Shown here: positions 2,213 through 9,001 of the stretch, in pieces | How the letters are laid out: each line of letters starts with the position of its first letter | Position numbering within the stretch: position 1 is the first letter of the stretch | Position numbers and translations under genes: made by a program | Notes under the pieces: generated by a model | Database searches by the model: none | Seen by the model: only the letters and a program-made list of their open reading frames with translations | What the model was told of the DNA's origin: nothing | Source: Escherichia phage vB_EcoS-611R4 | Strand: one strand, 5' to 3' | DNA: 20,345 nt | Sequence record: ON470587

Positions 2213-3004
2213 ATGAGCGAGAAATTAAAGATAGTCTATCGCCCATTACAAGAATTGTCACCGTATGCGCACAACGCCAGGACGCACAGCCCTGAGCAGG
2301 TGGCACAACTGGTAGAAAGTATTAAGCAATTCGGCTGGACTAATCCGGTGCTGATTGACGAAAAGGGCGAAATTATTGCGGGTCACGGTCGTGTTATGGC
2401 GGCTGAAATGCTCAAAATGGATTCTGTTCCGGTCATTGTTCTGTCTGGCCTGACGGATGAGCAGAAAAAGGCGTACCGCCTGGCAGATAATCGCCTGCCG
2501 ATGAATGCTGGCTGGGATGAAGATCTGTTGCGGATGGAGCTGTCGGACCTAATCAATGCTGATTTTGATGTCTCCCTGACAGGCTTCATCCCGACAGAAA
2601 TTGATGAACTGTTGACGGATGTTTTGCCCGGTACAGGAAATGAGGAGGAGCCGTATACGACGAAAATTGATACGCCTGTTTATGAGCCGTCGGGCGGTAA
2701 ACCGGATATCAGTGAACTGTACGACGATACGAAAACTCAGGAGCTGATCAGCCGGATACGTTCGGCGTCCCTTGAGCCTGATATTGAGAAATTCCTCCTG
2801 TGTGCGGCAGAACGTCACACGGTGTTTAATTTCAGCAGAATTGCGGACTATTACGCTCACGCCCCCTCTGAAATTCAGTGTTTTTTCGAGGAGTCGGCGC
2901 TGGTGATCATTGATTATCAGCAGGCTATTGAAAATGGATTTGTCCGGATGACGCAGCGCATGGTGGAGATCATGCATGGTGGTGAGGAGGAGGAATATGC
3001 GTGA
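2213..3004 (+). CDS. ParB-like nuclease-domain (ParB/Srx fold) protein with uncharacterised C-terminal domain
   Basis: ORF 2213..3004 (263 aa). The N-terminal ~100 aa carry ParB N-domain hallmarks: YRPLQELSPYAHNARTH (box I-like) and GHGRVMAA (counterpart of the ParB GERRxRAA arginine-finger box), then DEQKKAYRLADN. The acidic C-terminal half has no recognisable motif. Same position as ynaK next to trkG in K-12 Rac, as far as I recall. Confidence 0.75.
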   Translation: MSEKLKIVYRPLQELSPYAHNARTHSPEQVAQLVESIKQFGWTNPVLIDEKGEIIAGHGRVMAAEMLKMDSVPVIVLSGLTDEQKKAYRLADNRLPMNAGWDEDLLRMELSDLINADFDVSLTGFIPTEIDELLTDVLPGTGNEEEPYTTKIDTPVYEPSGGKPDISELYDDTKTQELISRIRSASLEPDIEKFLLCAAERHTVFNFSRIADYYAHAPSEIQCFFEESALVIIDYQQAIENGFVRMTQRMVEIMHGGEEEEYA

Positions 3005-3929
3005 TGATTTTTGCGCCTTTATTCTGACTCACGGGCGACCGGACAAAGTTCTGACTTACCGGACGTTGCGTCGTGCTGGCTATACCGGGAAAATTTTTAT
3101 CGTTGTTGATGATGAAGATAAGACACGGAATCAGTACATGGCTGAATTTGGTGAACAGGTGCTGGTGTTTTCCAAAGCCGATATCGCCAGTCGTTTTGAC
3201 GAAGCCGATAATTTCTGTGACCGCCGCTCAATTTTTTACGCCCGTAATGCCTGTTTCGACCTGGCAAAACTGGTCGGGTGTAAATACTTCATTCAGCTCG
3301 ATGATGATTATCACGAGTTCCAGTTTCGGGTGGATCGCAACTATGACCAGGCCTATTTTCCGATAAGGAAACTGGATGCGATCCTTTCTGAAATGCTGGC
3401 GTACTACGAATCAATACCTGCTCTTTCCATCGCTATGTCGCAGGGCGGGGATTTTCTTGGTGACAATGGCGGCCATGCTTCGTGGGTGAAACGCAAGGCA
3501 ATGAACAGCTTTATCTGTTCGGTTGATCGACCGTTCTCATTCATGGGGCGCATTAACGAGGATGTGAATACGTACACGAATCTCGGTCGCTGTGGTGAAT
3601 TGTTTATGACGATCGGTGCTGTCCAGTTAGGGCAGAAACAGACGCAGAAAAACAGCGGCGGAATGACCGAGCTGTATCTGGATTCCGGAACCTACGTTAA
3701 AAGTTTTTACTCCGTCATGTATGCGCCGTCGTGCGTAAAAATCTCACTGATGGGTGCCAGCCATAAACGCATTCACCATCAGGTCACCTGGAACAACGCT
3801 GCAGTAAAAATCCTTCACGAAAAATACAGGAAGAAGACACCCTGCATATCAATGGGGGTGACAAATGATTCCGTATTCGAAAGTCGAGTCTCTGGCAGCG
3901 TGCCGGATGACTGCACAACAAATCGCTGA
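2997..3929 (+). CDS. putative GT-A-fold nucleotide-sugar glycosyltransferase-like protein (uncharacterised)
   Basis: ORF track 2976..3929; preferred start ATG 2997, preceded by AGGAGGAGG and overlapping the ParB-like stop. N-terminal secondary-structure pattern matches GT-A enzymes: beta1 FCAFILTHGR, helix, beta2 KIFIVVDDED, then a DxD-like motif YFIQLDDDY and a later acidic motif INEDVN. No TM segments, no SAM or P-loop motif. Function assigned by inference only. Confidence 0.55.
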   Translation: MRDDFCAFILTHGRPDKVLTYRTLRRAGYTGKIFIVVDDEDKTRNQYMAEFGEQVLVFSKADIASRFDEADNFCDRRSIFYARNACFDLAKLVGCKYFIQLDDDYHEFQFRVDRNYDQAYFPIRKLDAILSEMLAYYESIPALSIAMSQGGDFLGDNGGHASWVKRKAMNSFICSVDRPFSFMGRINEDVNTYTNLGRCGELFMTIGAVQLGQKQTQKNSGGMTELYLDSGTYVKSFYSVMYAPSCVKISLMGASHKRIHHQVTWNNAAVKILHEKYRKKTPCISMGVTNDSVFESRVSGSVPDDCTTNR

Positions 3930-4116
3930 CGTTCTGGATGTTGATCTGAACCGACTGAAAGAAAATCGGGAAGCAATGACAGATTTTTATGCGGCCATCC
4001 GTAAGGGCAGAGCGAAAGGTGAAGCCGAGTTACGAGCGGCATTGTTTAAGCTTGCCAGAAAAGGGGATGCCTTTGCTCTGCGCGAACTACTCAGGGTGGA
4101 TAAAAATCAGGACTAA
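3865..4116 (+). CDS. hypothetical small protein (83 aa), possibly DNA-binding, immediately upstream of the small terminase
   Basis: ORF 3865..4116; ATG preceded by GGGGGTGA; overlaps the 3' end of the GT-A-like gene by 65 nt in another frame; stop lies 3 nt before the small terminase ATG. Helical, basic C-terminal half (AAIRKGRAKGEAELRAALFKLARKGD). No family recognised. Confidence 0.5.
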   Translation: MIPYSKVESLAACRMTAQQIADVLDVDLNRLKENREAMTDFYAAIRKGRAKGEAELRAALFKLARKGDAFALRELLRVDKNQD

Positions 4117-4119
4117 CTG

Positions 4120-5214
4120 ATGAGCAGACCGGACTGGGGGGCGTTGCAGCAGGAGTATATTGCTGAATACACCCGCTCCGGTATATCTCCGGTGGCATGG
4201 TGTGAAGCAAGGGGACTGAATTACGCAACAGCCCGTCGTTACATCAAAAAAACTCCGAAAAATGCGCAGACAGAAATGTGCAAAACTGCGCAAAAAAGTG
4301 CGCAGAAAAAATCTGCGCAGACTGCACAAAAGCGGAACGAAAAATCTCAGGAAAAAAAGCCAGTATTCGATGCGGGCCTGAATGAGGGCGACGCGGAGGA
4401 ATTTTCGTTCTGTCCCGATGAATTCGGCATTTCTGACCAGCAGGCTAAGTTTGCGATGCTTGTTGCTCAGGGTAAAAAGCCGACAGAGGCGTACCGACTA
4501 GCCGGTTATGAGGGGCAAGGTGCGACAGCTAACAGCAACGCCAGTCGTATGCTTAGAAATGCCAGGGTTTTTCGCGCTATCAGCTACTTCCGCAATCAGT
4601 ACCAGAAACGCTATACCGCAGACCTGGATTTACTAGTGAGTCAGTTGATGGCTATTGTCCTGGCCGACCCCAATCAGCTTGCACAATTTCGCCGTGTTAA
4701 CTGCCGTTATTGCTGGGGCGAGAATCATCTCTACCAGTGGCGCGATATAGCAGAATTCGACAAGGCAGCGGCGCAGGCTTCCAGAGATGGCAAACCCGAA
4801 CCGGAATATGGAGGCCTCGGCTTTGTTGATAACGCCATACCCAATCCGGACTGCCCGAAGTGCTGCGGTGAGGGAACGGGACAGCTTTATATGGCTGATA
4901 CCACTCTGCTTGATGGGGATGCGCGGCAATTATATGCAGGGGCAAAATTCGGAAAATTCGGCGTTGAGATCCTGCTGGAGGATAAGGCTGCCGCCCGGCG
5001 TGAATTGTTGCGTTTGCTTTCTGCTGGCGGGGATTTATGTGCAGATAAGCGGCTACAGGAACTGGAAATTGAACGGCGCAGAATGGAAAACCAGAAGCTG
5101 CGCAAAGAGATCGAAACGGTGGAAGATAATGAACATCCCCAGCCTGTGGCGATCAATATTAATGTGGTTGATGCCAGAGTAAGGAGTGATGAAGATGATC
5201 TCTCCGACGCTTAA
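4120..5214 (+). CDS. terminase small subunit (HTH N-terminus, low-complexity linker, C-terminal oligomerisation region)
   Basis: ORF 4120..5214 (364 aa), directly upstream of and overlapping the large terminase. N-terminal HTH-like segment (GISPVAWCEARGLNYATARRYIKK), then an AQK-rich linker encoded by TGCGCA repeats, then a coiled-coil C-terminus. Assignment by position and architecture. Confidence 0.7.
   Translation: MSRPDWGALQQEYIAEYTRSGISPVAWCEARGLNYATARRYIKKTPKNAQTEMCKTAQKSAQKKSAQTAQKRNEKSQEKKPVFDAGLNEGDAEEFSFCPDEFGISDQQAKFAMLVAQGKKPTEAYRLAGYEGQGATANSNASRMLRNARVFRAISYFRNQYQKRYTADLDLLVSQLMAIVLADPNQLAQFRRVNCRYCWGENHLYQWRDIAEFDKAAAQASRDGKPEPEYGGLGFVDNAIPNPDCPKCCGEGTGQLYMADTTLLDGDARQLYAGAKFGKFGVEILLEDKAAARRELLRLLSAGGDLCADKRLQELEIERRRMENQKLRKEIETVEDNEHPQPVAININVVDARVRSDEDDLSDA
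4262..4335 (+). repeat. degenerate tandem repeats TG(C/T)(G/A)CA(G/A)A(A), about six copies at ~12-bp spacing, inside the small terminase gene; candidate pac / TerS recognition site
   Basis: Copies start at 4263, 4277, 4287, 4299, 4314 and 4323 (TGCGCAGA, TGTGCAAAA, TGCGCAAAA, TGCGCAGAAA, TGCGCAGA, TGCACAAAA). Alternatively just the DNA image of the AQK peptide repeats. Confidence 0.3.
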
Positions 5215-6496
5215 TGTGCCTCAGGCGCGATTTCTTTCAATGCCCCATAAATTTAAAGCCTATATTGCTGGTTTTGGCTCGGGCAAAACATGGGTTGGGT
5301 GTGGCGGCATATGCAAGGGGATTTGGGAGCATCCAGGTATAAATCAGGGATATTTTGCGCCAACGTATCCCCAAATTCGCGATATTTTTTACCCTACAGT
5401 GGAAGAAGTTGCTGCTGACTGGGGATTGAACGTAAAAATTAATGAGGGAAATAAAGAGGTTCACTTTTATTACGGACGCCAGTATCGGGGAACCACTATC
5501 TGCAGATCGATGGAGAAGCCACAAACGATCGTCGGTTTCAAAATTGGTAATGCGTTGGTGGATGAACTGGACATTTTGCCGAAGGAAAAAGCCAGAACGG
5601 CGTGGCGCAAGATAATTGCGCGTATGCGTTATAAGATTGATGGACTTCGCAACGGTATTGACGTTACAACCACGCCGGAAGGATTCAAATTTGTCTACGA
5701 GCAGTTTGTTAAAGCCGTGCGTGAAAAAACAGAGCTGGCCTCACTGTATGGTCTGGTGCAGGCATCTACTTTCGATAATGAAAAGAACCTGCCAGCAGAT
5801 TACATTCCTTCGCTTCTTGAATCATACCCTCCAGAGCTGATTAAAGCCTATCTGCGAGGACAGTTTACTAACCTGACAAGTGGTACTGTTTACCATCAGT
5901 TTGACCGGAAACTGAATAATTGCGAAGAAGTGGAGCAGCCAGGGGAGCCGATTTATATTGGGATGGATTTTAACGTTGGAAAGATGGCGGGAATCGTCCA
6001 TGTGCTGCGTTTGGGGCTTCCATGTGCGGTAACTGAAATCATCAATGCCTACGATACGCCGGATATGATCCGCATCATTAAAGAACGCTTCTGGCTGTAT
6101 GATGGGAATGATTACCGGAAAGTGAGGGAAATTTATATTTATCCAGATGCTTCCGGGGATTCCAGAAAATCAAGTAACGCAAGTACGACGGATATAGCCC
6201 AGCTTAAGCAGGCTGGTTTTAACGTTGTGGTGAACAGCTCGAACCCGCCAGTAAAAGATCGCGTTAACTCAATGAATGCAATGTTCTGCAATGCCAATGG
6301 TGAGCGTCGCTATAAAGTTAATGTGAAGCGTTGCCCGTTATATGCCGAATCTCTGGAGCAACAGGTCTGGGATGAGAAGGGGGAGCCTGATAAAAAATCT
6401 GGCAATGATCACCCGAATGATGCCGGAGGTTATTTCATCGTTAAGCAATTCCCTATTGTCAAACCGACCGGAAGAGTCACATCACTTCGGATTTAA
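5186..6496 (+). CDS. terminase large subunit (ATPase/nuclease)
   Basis: ORF 5186..6496 (436 aa). Walker A P-loop AGFGSGKTW near the N-terminus, Walker B-like hydrophobic stretch plus acidic pair (NALVDELD), acidic C-terminal nuclease-like region (YIYPDASGDS). Overlaps the end of the small terminase gene. Confidence 0.85.
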   Translation: MMKMISPTLNVPQARFLSMPHKFKAYIAGFGSGKTWVGCGGICKGIWEHPGINQGYFAPTYPQIRDIFYPTVEEVAADWGLNVKINEGNKEVHFYYGRQYRGTTICRSMEKPQTIVGFKIGNALVDELDILPKEKARTAWRKIIARMRYKIDGLRNGIDVTTTPEGFKFVYEQFVKAVREKTELASLYGLVQASTFDNEKNLPADYIPSLLESYPPELIKAYLRGQFTNLTSGTVYHQFDRKLNNCEEVEQPGEPIYIGMDFNVGKMAGIVHVLRLGLPCAVTEIINAYDTPDMIRIIKERFWLYDGNDYRKVREIYIYPDASGDSRKSSNASTTDIAQLKQAGFNVVVNSSNPPVKDRVNSMNAMFCNANGERRYKVNVKRCPLYAESLEQQVWDEKGEPDKKSGNDHPNDAGGYFIVKQFPIVKPTGRVTSLRI

Positions 6497-6498
6497 TT

Positions 6499-7905
6499 AT
6501 GGCTGATATATCAACACCCAACCTCGACTATAACGATATGCTGGAGGCGTGGGATATTAACGACGCACTGATGGGCGGTACGCTTGAAATGCGCAGGCAG
6601 GGGGAAAATTATCTCCCAAAATGGCCTAACGAAGATGAAGACGCTTATAAAAAACGCCTGTCTGTGGCTACGCTACTTCCTGTGTATGAAGAAAGCATCA
6701 AGCAAAATATTGGGCGCATATTTGCAGAGCCGACAGTATTGAGTGAGGAAACGCCGGCAAAAATCAGGGAATATGCAGAAAATATCGACATGGAGGGAAG
6801 CCGACTGGATGTGTGGGCGCAGCAATTTTTCAGCCTCGCATTTCAGTATGGTGTGGCACATGCGCTGGTGGACTATCCACGAACGGATATGAAAGAGATT
6901 CGGACAAAAGCCGATGAAAACGCGGCCGGTAGTCGTCCGTACGTTACGATGCTGAATCCACGCCAGGTTATTGGATGGAAATCGAAAGTTGAAAAAGGGA
7001 AAGTTGTTCTCACTGATTTGCGTATAAAAGAGGTCATCATTATTGATGGTGATGATTTCGGGCAGAAGAAGGTGGAGCAGATCCGCCATATTATGCCCCG
7101 TCGAGTTGAAATTTATCGACGTAGCGAAGGCACTAATGGCGAATCTGTCTGGACGCTTCATGAGTCATGGAATACCAGCCGTGATGATATTCCTCTGGTA
7201 ACACTGTACACGAAGAAAACAGGATTTATGCGTGGTACACCGCCATTGCTTAATCTTGGCTTGCTGAATATCAAGCACTGGCAAAGCCAGAGCGAGCAGG
7301 ACAATATTCTTCATGTTGCCCGCGTTCCATTGCTGGTGGCCTACGGGCTGGACAGGAATGAAGAACTGACGGTTGGTGCATCCACCGCTACGATTTTTGA
7401 GGACAGAACAAAAAATGGCCTCGAATATGTTGAACATAGTGGCGCAGCGATAGAATCTGGCGAAACATCACTTGAGAAGCTGGAAAATCAGATGCGTCAT
7501 GCCGGCGCTAAACTTCTGCGTGCTGAAAATACATCCACCAAATCTGTTGATCAGACTAATGAAGAGCGAATGCAGGAAAACTCGCCGCTTTATACAATGG
7601 CGAACTCCCTCGAAGATGCCCTCGATAATATTCTCCAGATAATGGCGGAATGGATCGGAGAGAGTTGCGGTGGCAATGTGGATGTGCGCACTGAACTGGA
7701 TGTATCTGCCCAGGTGTTTGACTCATCCTCCGCGCTGGCTGTTCAGTCATTGCGTCAGGGCGGTGATATACGTCAGATTGATGCGATTCGGGTGTTGCAG
7801 GCGTTGAAATTTATCGATCAGGATTCCCGTCCAGAGGAAGTGATCGATGAATTAAAAAATCAGAGTGTAATGCTGATGGAAATCAATGATGCAAACCGTG
7901 AATGA
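6499..7905 (+). CDS. portal protein
   Basis: ORF 6499..7905 (468 aa) immediately after the large terminase (ATG 2 nt after its stop), followed by a MuF-like gene: the canonical terminase-portal-MuF order of headful-packaging phages. Size and acidic C-terminus are consistent. Assignment mainly by position. Confidence 0.7.
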   Translation: MADISTPNLDYNDMLEAWDINDALMGGTLEMRRQGENYLPKWPNEDEDAYKKRLSVATLLPVYEESIKQNIGRIFAEPTVLSEETPAKIREYAENIDMEGSRLDVWAQQFFSLAFQYGVAHALVDYPRTDMKEIRTKADENAAGSRPYVTMLNPRQVIGWKSKVEKGKVVLTDLRIKEVIIIDGDDFGQKKVEQIRHIMPRRVEIYRRSEGTNGESVWTLHESWNTSRDDIPLVTLYTKKTGFMRGTPPLLNLGLLNIKHWQSQSEQDNILHVARVPLLVAYGLDRNEELTVGASTATIFEDRTKNGLEYVEHSGAAIESGETSLEKLENQMRHAGAKLLRAENTSTKSVDQTNEERMQENSPLYTMANSLEDALDNILQIMAEWIGESCGGNVDVRTELDVSAQVFDSSSALAVQSLRQGGDIRQIDAIRVLQALKFIDQDSRPEEVIDELKNQSVMLMEINDANRE

Positions 7906-9001
7906 ACGGCTGCGTGATGAATCAATTGCTCATGCAGTCTGGATATCCCGCTATAGCACTGGCGTGGCTGCCAGAATGGTGAAAATACTGAATGACAGCG
8001 ATGCGGAACTTACTGCTCGCCTGCTGATAGCACTGGACAGCCTCGATCCAGGTAGTTTTACCGTTAAGCGCCTGGAGTCACTTCTGGCGAGCGTCAGAGA
8101 GGTTAACCGCACTGCTATTAACAGCATGTTTACCAGTCTCTCCGGAGAGCTGAACGAGCTGGCAATTTATGAGGCTGGTTATCAGTTAAGTCTGTTTGAT
8201 TCTATGCTACCTGATTTTGTTGCTGATGTTCACCCTCTGGTTGGTATCTCTCCTGATGCACTTTATGCCGCTGCAATGGCGCGACCATTTCAGGGACGAC
8301 TGCTCAGTGAGTGGGCCTCAGATCTTGAGGCGGATCGGCTCAGACGCATAACAAATACAGTGCGTCAGGGTTTTTTGCTGGGGGATACCAATGAGCAGAT
8401 CGCAAGAAAAATTCGGGGACATGTCAGTAAGGGATTTCAGGATGGTGCATTGCAGATGAGCCGGGCTAATGCGGCCAGCATTGCAAAAACAGCGGTTGGA
8501 CATCTTGCTGCTACTGCCCGTGAGAGTTTTGCCAGCGCGAATAATGATTTGATTAAGGGTAAGCAATGGTTATCAACGCTTGATAATCGTACTACGCCAC
8601 AATGTCGAATCAGGGATCGCCTCAAATATACGCTGAATAATAAACCTGTAGGTCACAGCGTGCCTTATTTGCAGGGGCCGGGAAAAATTCATTTCTGCTG
8701 CCGCTCAACGGAAACGTTCATTCTGAAATCAGCGAAGGAACTGGGTATTGATGTTCGCGATATTTCCCCGGCTGAGCGGGCCAGCATGGATGGCGTGGTG
8801 GCCGGAGATACAACCTACAGGGAATGGTTTTTGCGTCAGCCTTACACCAGACAAAAACAGATTGTGGGGGAAACCCGAGCAAAGCTGATTCGGGATGGTG
8901 GTATGTCGCCAGATGAATTTTACACCGATAAAGGCGAATGGCTGACGCTGAAGCAGCTCCGTGAGCGTGATGCACAGGTATTCAGAAAAGCAGGGATTTA
9001 A
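7886..9001 (+). CDS. head morphogenesis protein (phage Mu F-like / SPP1 gp7-like minor head protein)
   Basis: ORF 7886..9001 (371 aa), overlapping the portal stop. Position after the portal and composition are typical of the MuF-like family. Not verified by search. Confidence 0.6.
   Translation: MMQTVNERLRDESIAHAVWISRYSTGVAARMVKILNDSDAELTARLLIALDSLDPGSFTVKRLESLLASVREVNRTAINSMFTSLSGELNELAIYEAGYQLSLFDSMLPDFVADVHPLVGISPDALYAAAMARPFQGRLLSEWASDLEADRLRRITNTVRQGFLLGDTNEQIARKIRGHVSKGFQDGALQMSRANAASIAKTAVGHLAATARESFASANNDLIKGKQWLSTLDNRTTPQCRIRDRLKYTLNNKPVGHSVPYLQGPGKIHFCCRSTETFILKSAKELGIDVRDISPAERASMDGVVAGDTTYREWFLRQPYTRQKQIVGETRAKLIRDGGMSPDEFYTDKGEWLTLKQLRERDAQVFRKAGI

Follow-up and report, generated by a model that had tools for sequence, protein, structure and literature searches.

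A hexamer array inside the small terminase gene of a Rac-like prophage is a probable packaging recognition site inherited with an N-terminal helix-turn-helix

Introduction

How does a terminase single out the DNA of its own phage, and can short repeats within a terminase gene serve as the mark? The way in which the small terminase (TerS) chooses viral DNA is poorly understood, few packaging recognition (pac) sites have been mapped, and structures of ring-forming TerS proteins have mostly pointed to weak or sequence-independent contacts. The question is raised here by Escherichia phage vB_EcoS-611R4 (sequence record ON470587), of which a stretch of 20,345 nucleotides was analysed (hereafter the window). 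An initial annotation, made from the sequence alone, noted a cluster of TGCGCA-like repeats inside the small terminase gene terS (4120-5214, + strand) and proposed that it could be a pac site, or that it could simply reflect a low-complexity, AQK-rich peptide.

We find that the repeats (4263-4330) are clustered, constrained as DNA, inherited together with an N-terminal helix-turn-helix (HTH) of TerS, and altered in step with the third helix of that domain. The comparative evidence (hexamers in several reading frames, fixed wobble positions and co-variation with helix 3) supports the first proposal: the array is probably the DNA recognition site of TerS, either of the pac type or, if the phage has defined ends, the equivalent of lambda cosB. 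Loci of relatives are referred to by L numbers where one has to be singled out.

Results

A cluster of TGCGCA-like hexamers lies within terS

The motif TGYRCARA occurs on the + strand at 4263, 4277, 4287, 4299, 4314 and 4323, giving six copies in 68 bp, and has just 3 further + strand matches in the remaining 20 kb. While the number of matches in the window as a whole is ordinary (10, compared with 8.1 expected), their clustering is unusual. No more than 2 copies per 70 bp arose in 500 dinucleotide-preserving shuffles of the window, and the maximum was likewise 2 when the local A-rich 111 bp were shuffled 5000 times. The motif count and the shuffles confirm the six or so intragenic copies that had been reported, and the spacings of 14, 10, 12, 15 and 9 bp agree with the earlier estimate of ~9-15 bp. 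The array lies wholly within the terS open reading frame (ORF), a location that agrees with pac sites of the P22, SPP1, P1 and Sf6 kind.

Four copies carry a perfect TGCGCA core. Repeat 1 (4263-4270, TGCGCAGA) is read as AAT GCG CAG ACA (N-A-Q-T), repeat 3 (4287-4294, TGCGCAAA) as ACT GCG CAA AAA (T-A-Q-K), repeat 4 (4299-4306, again TGCGCAGA) as AGT GCG CAG AAA (S-A-Q-K) and repeat 5 (4314-4321, also TGCGCAGA) as TCT GCG CAG ACT (S-A-Q-T). The other two differ from it by one base: repeat 2 (4277-4284, TGTGCAAA, core TGTGCA) is TGCGCA in most relatives, and repeat 6 (4323-4330, TGCACAAA, core TGCACA), read as ACT GCA CAA AAG (T-A-Q-K), is TGCGCA in many. Five copies thus share the in-frame form xxT GCR CAR Axx, or (N/S/T)-A-Q-(K/T), and for these the description of the repeats as coding for an AQK-rich linker stands. 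It fails for repeat 2, which lies in a different frame and is read as ATG TGC AAA (M-C-K).

The repeats are conserved as DNA rather than as peptide

Conservation was assessed in a species-level sample (one genome per species, five-sequence alignment query) of 80 loci (L099-L178) from Enterobacterales and one Vibrio, from which 65 intact, non-identical terS genes encoding A-R-R-Y in helix 3 were taken. These 65 genes contain 336 hexamers, 249 in frame 2, 69 in frame 1 and 18 in frame 0; at least two reading frames are used in 62 of the 65 genes, and all three in 14. Linker Ala-Gln is written T-GCG-CAx in 225 of 248 cases (91%), whereas outside the linker these genes use that spelling in 62 of 192 (Fisher p = 3e-39). 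Among 64 genes, GCG makes up 92% of the Ala codons of linker Ala-Gln but 19% of those of the HTH, and the wobble base before linker Ala-Gln is T in ~95% (ACT in 80 of 90, Ser-xxT in 62 of 62). By comparison, the frequency of the major allele at 4-fold sites of conserved HTH residues averages just 0.64 in these 64 genes. The wobble positions of the hexamer are therefore near-fixed, while the 4-fold sites of the adjacent domain have diverged. In Klebsiella phage ST11-VIM1phi8.2, six TGCGCA copies distributed over all three frames are read variously as AQ, LR and CA.

Closer relatives gave a consistent picture. In 88 Rac-like loci (26 distinct sequences, with 80 loci whose N-terminal domain is 100% identical), six sites are found at identical positions with zero copy-number variation. 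TGCGCA is the commonest state at every site, and the TGTGCA and TGCACA of the window are point variants of it.

The hexamers are thus conserved beyond the needs of the protein, and the comparison of synonymous sites among relatives, which the initial annotation had put forward as a check, favours a DNA-level element through its frames, wobble fixation and codon bias. That the repeats are nothing more than a low-complexity AQK-rich linker, or the product of slippage or neutral tandem duplication, is extremely improbable. While the linker region is indeed predicted to be disordered and is rich in Lys, Ala and Gln, and while Tandem Repeats Finder reports a 36-bp unit about twice (2.1 copies at 4258-4331), a peptide repeat would keep to one frame, change freely at synonymous positions and vary in copy number, and the opposite was found on each count. 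Moreover, the classes of array described below encode wholly different linker peptides (AQK, ANS/CEN, IDHE and KVST), each on a repeated DNA word, and the array of Actinobacillus phage vB_Apl-pPE4 holds inverted copies, which is impossible for a peptide repeat. The AQK-rich peptide appears to be mostly a by-product of the DNA sites.

A constraint on the nucleic acid could also arise from its structure, with self-complementary hexamers pairing as RNA or single-stranded DNA to regulate translation or to act as a replication or recombination signal. The segment 4245-4345 does fold stably as RNA (-29.8 kcal/mol, z = -5.1 relative to shuffles), as do TGCGCA arrays of Klebsiella and Aeromonas phages (z = -3.6 and -3.3). 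However, this folding follows automatically from a palindromic hexamer, and the TGCGAA arrays of Pasteurellaceae phages, which consist of direct repeats alone, are no more stable when folded than their shuffles (z = +0.7 and +1.0). The invariant hexamers provide no covariation to back any given pairing, and Rfam returned no match. We consider a structural role of this kind very unlikely. Because the Pasteurellaceae arrays are non-palindromic, the palindromic core to which attention had been drawn is also unsupported as a general feature.

TerS begins with a small predicted HTH followed by a disordered linker

The 364-residue terS product is divided into an N-terminal HTH, a disordered linker, a second HTH of the Terminase_2 type, and an oligomerisation body with a CxxC...CxxC insertion. 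In the AlphaFold2 model, residues 1-43 form three helices (6-20, 24-30 and 35-41), with a predicted local distance difference test (pLDDT) score of 71-80 in the full TerS model and 83.9 when residues 1-46 are folded alone. The resulting HTH-like domain (residues 1-44, 4120-4251) is the proposed reader of the repeats, and its third helix, Y35-A-T-A-R39-R40-Y41 (4222-4242, with the R39 codon at 4234-4236), is the putative recognition helix. Directly after this domain comes the linker (residues 45-95, 4252-4404), delimited from pLDDT and codon-level constraint, which is predicted to be disordered (pLDDT 25-45 over residues 44-94). The second HTH (residues ~99-160, 4414-4599; pLDDT 77-89) is the classical Terminase_2 N-terminal DNA-binding domain, as placed by the model, by the start of the Pfam match, and by a weak match of residues 108-158 to the Pam5 small terminase (chain 21di_E), the sole TerS match in a PDB sequence search.

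The top Foldseek matches in the PDB to the 46-residue domain are DNA-binding HTHs (IstA, DeoR, Aca1, sigma region 4 and Fis). The PDB sequence search returned nothing meaningful for this domain or for the large terminase (TerL), and no Pfam model covers it; among PHROGs, a homologous N-terminal domain heads families 51, 370, 32222, 30708 and 1711. A search of 5.8 billion proteins with full-length TerS found only relatives of at least 81% identity; the resulting alignment was shallow and the model poor except in the two HTHs, and a 48-residue query of the same set returned short fragments only.

The array sequence co-varies with helix 3

At 73 loci with an A-R-R-Y-I-K helix, TGCGCA occurs a mean of 4.95 times in the 180 nt that follow the helix, or 27 per kb, compared with 0.73 per kb in 203 kb of flanks, and TGCGAA is essentially absent there. 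The only A-R-R-Y loci with fewer than two TGCGCA (L148, L174 and L175) are all truncated genes. At 13 loci the helix is instead A-K-R-Y-I-K; here the mean is 3.8 TGCGAA, often as TGCGAATTCGCA, and 0.23 TGCGCA. The association of A-K-R-Y with TGCGAA is without exception, in a class that includes a Yersinia phage and Pasteurellaceae phages.

Across 68 aligned domains, residue 39 is the sole position that divides the TGCGCA class (R, 54 sequences) from the TGCGAA class (K, 13). Elsewhere in the domain, K-class sequences are up to 98% identical to R-class sequences, and with residue 39 set aside they resemble the R class as closely as they resemble one another. Locus L105 (K, TGCGAA) and locus L110 (R, TGCGCA), for instance, have one other difference in 42 positions. 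A further contrast is provided by sisters of a Shiga-toxin (Stx) phage-type backbone that are 70-74% identical, in which either TARRYIK accompanies 5-6 TGCGCA, or TARTRIK (933W-like) accompanies 4-5 GATCAT. The interleaved identities and this one sister-group contrast suggest two or more independent helix switches.

Two features of the alternative arrays were also observed. In enterobacterial K-class arrays (L105, L107, L113, L120 and others) the half-site is often part of a 12-bp palindrome that includes an EcoRI site (TGCGAATTCGCA), and in Pasteurellaceae it forms direct repeats only; the two lineages may differ in how the HTHs are arranged on DNA. In phages like 933W and VT2-Sakai (L096:1630-1690; L240-L278) there are four copies of (C/T)GATCATRA with a 12-bp period, encoding IDHE IDHK TDHE IDHD, and five in L272; every copy has a Dam site, like the P1 pac hexamers.

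The HTH and its array recur together on unrelated TerS bodies

A weak DNA match led to E. coli VE-T10, which has a different TerS (235 residues) beside a PBSX-type TerL. The first 44 residues of this protein are homologous to those of the window TerS (64% identity) and are directly followed by four copies of CTGCGCAAA, one of which is out of frame and is read as Val-Arg-Lys. When the 44-residue domain was used in a tblastn search of phage records, 251 genomes were matched, and a short-repeat array was present at the same place in all seven diverged examples taken from the matches. Besides the Klebsiella phage described above, such arrays are found in E. coli phage PHB10 (three TGCGCA), Vibrio phage douglas 12A4 (five TGCGCA), Yersinia phage vB_YenM_21.09 (four TGCGAAT), Pasteurella phage Pmp11 (about nine TGCGAA in two frames), and the 933W-like Stx records L096 and L097 (four (C/T)GATCAT with a 12-bp period, plus two TGCGCA). 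Aeromonas phages like phiARM81mr, whose helix reads SARRYLK and whose HTH is ~40% identical to that of the window, have 5-7 TGCGCA; the array is likewise retained in Vibrio phages at ~40% HTH identity, and Pasteurellaceae relatives with AKRY have 7-8 TGCGAA.

The TGCGCA and TGCGAA classes each occur on at least three unrelated bodies, namely Terminase_2/Zn-ribbon, Stx-phage-type and VE-T10. Judged from these sequences, the array tracks the HTH and not the TerS body. The HTH and its sites are inherited as one cassette of ~250 bp, because the sites occupy the codons right after the HTH.

The converse exchange is seen in Actinobacillus phage vB_Apl-pPE4 (PP818812; L298:1207-2298), which has the TerS body of the window at 93% DNA identity and a different N-terminal HTH (MKESDWKIIRHRLETGD...RARKEGWKK). 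At the same place in its linker lies a different array, GTTTCCAC twice together with inverted GTGGAAA(C) (GTTTCCAC/GTGGAAAC). Near-identity to an E. coli prophage is odd for a record labelled Actinobacillus, and could reflect recent transfer or mis-assignment.

In the LT-II toxin prophages Rac-SA53 (L002:2912-3940) and STEC719 (L010:1412-2440), terS is a deletion-fusion that lacks the N-terminal 40-odd codons and the first repeats (annotated as "gpOterS; fusion of two genes by deletion"). Of the copies that remain, three are mutated, to TTCGCA, TGCGCT and TGCCCA. This pattern fits decay of the sites after loss of their reader, in what is a single lineage.

The recurrence of the array also bears on whether it is a site for another protein, such as the ParB-like product of the upstream gene (2213-3004), a nucleoid protein, or a modification enzyme linked to a TET-associated glycosyltransferase (TAGT)-like gene (2976-3929). 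Both genes lie directly upstream of the terminases, ParB proteins bind clustered short repeats, and TGCGCA includes GCGC, a common target of cytosine methylation. Nevertheless, arrays are also present where terS directly follows lysis genes and ParB and TAGT genes are not nearby (L092-L095). The motif tracks one residue of a TerS HTH, and it gives way to GATCAT or GTTTCCAC where the HTH is a different one, a switch that binding by a host factor would leave unexplained. There is only a slim chance that another protein is the reader.

A broader proposal follows the same lines. Many gamma-proteobacterial temperate phages may share a portable cassette, consisting of a 43-residue HTH with its own array in the linker codons, whose packaging specificity would be reprogrammed by changing one or two helix 3 residues together with the array and which is swapped among unrelated TerS bodies; on the comparisons above, we judge the case for this to be evenly balanced. 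The phages concerned are Rac-like, Stx/933W-like, Klebsiella, Yersinia, Aeromonas, Vibrio and Pasteurellaceae phages. If the proposal is true, there would be a recognition code (R39 with TGCGCA, K39 with TGCGAA, R-T-R with GATCAT) from which pac sites could be read, and the predicted pac site of 933W-type Shiga-toxin phages would be a Dam-methylatable, and hence Dam-sensitive, GATC array like that of P1.

A model for recognition of the array in packaging

Because TerS is the protein that selects viral DNA, the array is most likely a packaging recognition site. In the model that we favour, TerS would form a ring in which every subunit bears the extra N-terminal three-helix HTH (residues 1-43) on a flexible linker. 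Helix 3 (Y35-ATARRY-41) would read a single hexamer, with residue 39 touching the fifth base pair, and several HTHs of one ring would bind the 5-8 close-set sites and so mark concatemeric phage DNA. TerS would then recruit TerL (5186-6496), whose nuclease and ATPase would cut nearby and start packaging. During evolution, the HTH-array cassette would have been grafted onto several unrelated TerS bodies. We infer each of these steps, from HTH binding and the residue 39 contact to ring engagement and the role in packaging initiation, from the comparisons above.

Several observations weigh against this model. Spacings in the 65-gene set peak at 7, 9, 12, 14 and 16 bp without helical phasing, and the geometry of ring engagement is therefore speculative. 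Two copies in the window's own array are degraded, and many carriers are prophages of uncertain viability. The Foldseek matches to HTHs are singly non-significant (E about 1), as expected for 46 residues. Since the HTH and the array adjoin one another, part of their co-variation could be linkage of two ancestral segments. The HTH-less terS of Rac-SA53 and STEC719 otherwise looks intact, and the HTH would be non-essential if such a phage packages normally. In the PDB sequence search, TerL had no relative of known packaging type, and the open-access literature yielded no binding or packaging-start data for this phage or its relatives.

The largest residual doubt concerns a TerS operator, in which the N-terminal HTH would bind the hexamers to autoregulate terS and terL (by roadblock or translational coupling) rather than to choose where packaging starts. 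All the support for recognition of the hexamer by the HTH fits an operator equally; the sites are intragenic and just upstream of terL, and the second HTH of the TerS body could itself handle packaging recognition. However, arrays of such a size (5-8 sites), suited to a multimeric ring, typify packaging recognition, as in P1 pac, lambda cosB and SPP1 pacL/pacR, and we know of no precedent for a TerS that acts as a repressor through intragenic sites. In addition, no second HTH motif of the Terminase_2 type was seen by sequence, without a domain-library scan, in Stx-phage-type TerS N-terminal sequences; if it is truly absent, the N-terminal HTH is the only candidate DNA reader of these proteins. 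An operator is thus an unlikely explanation, and recognition for packaging is preferred.

As to the type of packaging, the markers present are TerL with Terminase_6N and Terminase_6C domains, a MuF-like protein and a P22-like coat. Phage 933W, related solely through the homologous N-terminal HTH domain of its TerS, carries out generalized transduction and is probably terminally redundant (PMC3752737). Public records of relatives are prophage predictions or have been re-oriented to start at terL. Record PV189402, which ends inside terS, was considered as a physical end and rejected, as it had merely been re-oriented in this way. A search of the open-access literature for published descriptions of the array, of Stx- or Rac-type pac sites and of Rac-SA53 returned none that describes the element.

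Genomic setting and neighbouring genes

The window is of the Rac-like lambdoid E. coli prophage type. It is identical to Escherichia phage vB_EcoS-606R9 (ON470581) and near many Rac-like prophages, and a 351-bp query is matched by 914 of 5426 complete E. coli genomes. The identity of terS is well established: its product matches Pfam PF03592 (Terminase_2) over residues 122-321 (E = 2.4e-8, 35.1 bits compared with a gathering cutoff of 26.1) and PHROG 51, a small terminase family, over residues 1-364 (E = 2e-76), and both ON470614 and RefSeq label the product as terminase small subunit. The Terminase_2 match spreads 200 residues over 111 profile positions, and an insertion that bears the CxxC...CxxC pairs is implied. 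These cysteines (C195-x2-C198 and C245-x2-C248, within 4702-4863) are invariant and lie in a ~90-residue insertion of the Terminase_2 fold that looks like a zinc-ribbon-like element, in a part of the model that is poor (pLDDT < 50). Three protein entries join TerS to the upstream TAGT-like protein (565 residues, PF20691 + PF03592) or to a tail fibre (616 residues) (P0050, P0054 and P0027), and these fusions are probably artefacts of frameshift, assembly or gene calling.

Downstream, terL (5186-6496, + strand; GTG start at 5186, annotated start at 5195) encodes a large terminase with Terminase_6N (E = 3.7e-33) and Terminase_6C (E = 3.4e-10) domains and matches to PHROGs 2 and 10250. It is followed by genes for a DUF4055 portal, a MuF-like protein, a DUF6651 protein and a P22-like coat, so that the order of the head module given by the initial annotation holds by Pfam. 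The MuF-like head morphogenesis protein (7886-9001, + strand; Phage_Mu_F, PHROG 241) is labelled 'NAD+--asparagine ADP-ribosyltransferase' in ON470614 and may be a MuF-toxin fusion, of the MuF polymorphic toxin kind.

Upstream, the ORF that precedes terS (3865-4116, + strand; 83 residues, annotated as 69) has no Pfam match and matches the C-terminal part of PHROG 309, another small terminase family (positions 145-218 of 319, E = 8e-23). It has no counterpart at the other HTH-bearing loci examined, and could be what is left of a different TerS, or an accessory derived from one. The terminase genes are also directly preceded by those for the ParB-like protein (2213-3004; PHROG 620, E = 8.5e-91) and the TAGT homologue (2976-3929; PF20691, E = 8e-35; 'GREB1-related protein' in RefSeq). 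This pair hints at a DNA-modification module; the window showed no TET/JBP oxygenase. A 491-residue ORF (600-2075, + strand; PHROG 1916 over its full length), named TrkG (Trk potassium uptake protein) in related records, is the known cargo gene of Rac and separates the lysis genes from the packaging genes.

Discussion

The family described here offers a sharp hexamer, a small independent HTH and natural, near-isogenic swaps of specificity (L105 and L110), which together make recognition of DNA by TerS directly testable. It spans 933W-type Shiga-toxin phages and the widespread Rac-like prophages. A defined pac signal would aid in predicting what parts of the host genome or of plasmids generalized or lateral transduction can mobilise, and would permit packaging-specific vectors. 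If the cassette proposal is true, the array would moreover illustrate overlapping codes with unusual clarity, the sequence of a protein linker being dictated by a signal in the DNA.

The closest parallel is P1, whose pac site is an array of TGATCA/G hexamers inside pacA, arranged in two clusters that flank the cleavage region and dependent on IHF/HU. The window likewise has a short hexamer cluster inside a small-terminase-type gene (six copies in 68 bp here, 5-8 in relatives), the candidate reader being the packaging enzyme, and the four or five (C/T)GATCAT copies of 933W-like relatives resemble TGATCA/G. In P1 the hexamers contain GATC and Dam methylation controls cleavage; in contrast, GATC is absent from the TGCGCA repeats of the window and from their variants, leaving them without a Dam site, and there is one cluster rather than two. 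As far as tested, PacA shares no homology with the N-terminal HTH.

The pacR element of SPP1 is situated near the 5′ end of gene 1 (terS), within the coding region. The TerS body of the window belongs to the same Pfam family as those of SPP1 and SF6, Terminase_2, and the position of the array in 5′ terS is shared with pacR. The multiple HTHs of a TerS ring have been proposed to engage repeated or bent DNA (PMC4737164). The contacts of SF6-type TerS have been described as multiple and sequence-independent (PMC4737164), whereas the sharp hexamers found here point to an apparent base-specific readout. The reader would here be an extra HTH at the N terminus, tethered by a long disordered linker, and not the Terminase_2 HTH.

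In the headful phage P22, pac consists of one asymmetric sequence, ~22 bp long, located midway along gene 3. It resembles the candidate site in lying within the coding region of terS, and the window also encodes a P22-type coat, but P22 has no repeat array and its gp3 is without a comparable N-terminal HTH and linker. Lambda is a cos system with defined cohesive ends made at the cosN nicking site; the adjacent R sites of cosB, ~16 bp each, lie upstream of Nu1 and act with IHF. Here too, several short elements beside or within the terminase genes would be bound by TerS through an N-terminal domain, as the winged HTH of gpNu1 binds those of lambda. The sites of the window are inside the gene, however, and its phage family may be headful, by extension from 933W. 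Compared with P1 pac, SPP1 pacR and lambda cosB, the distinguishing feature of this locus would be the union of an extra, tethered HTH with its own array in a single contiguous cassette that can be exchanged.

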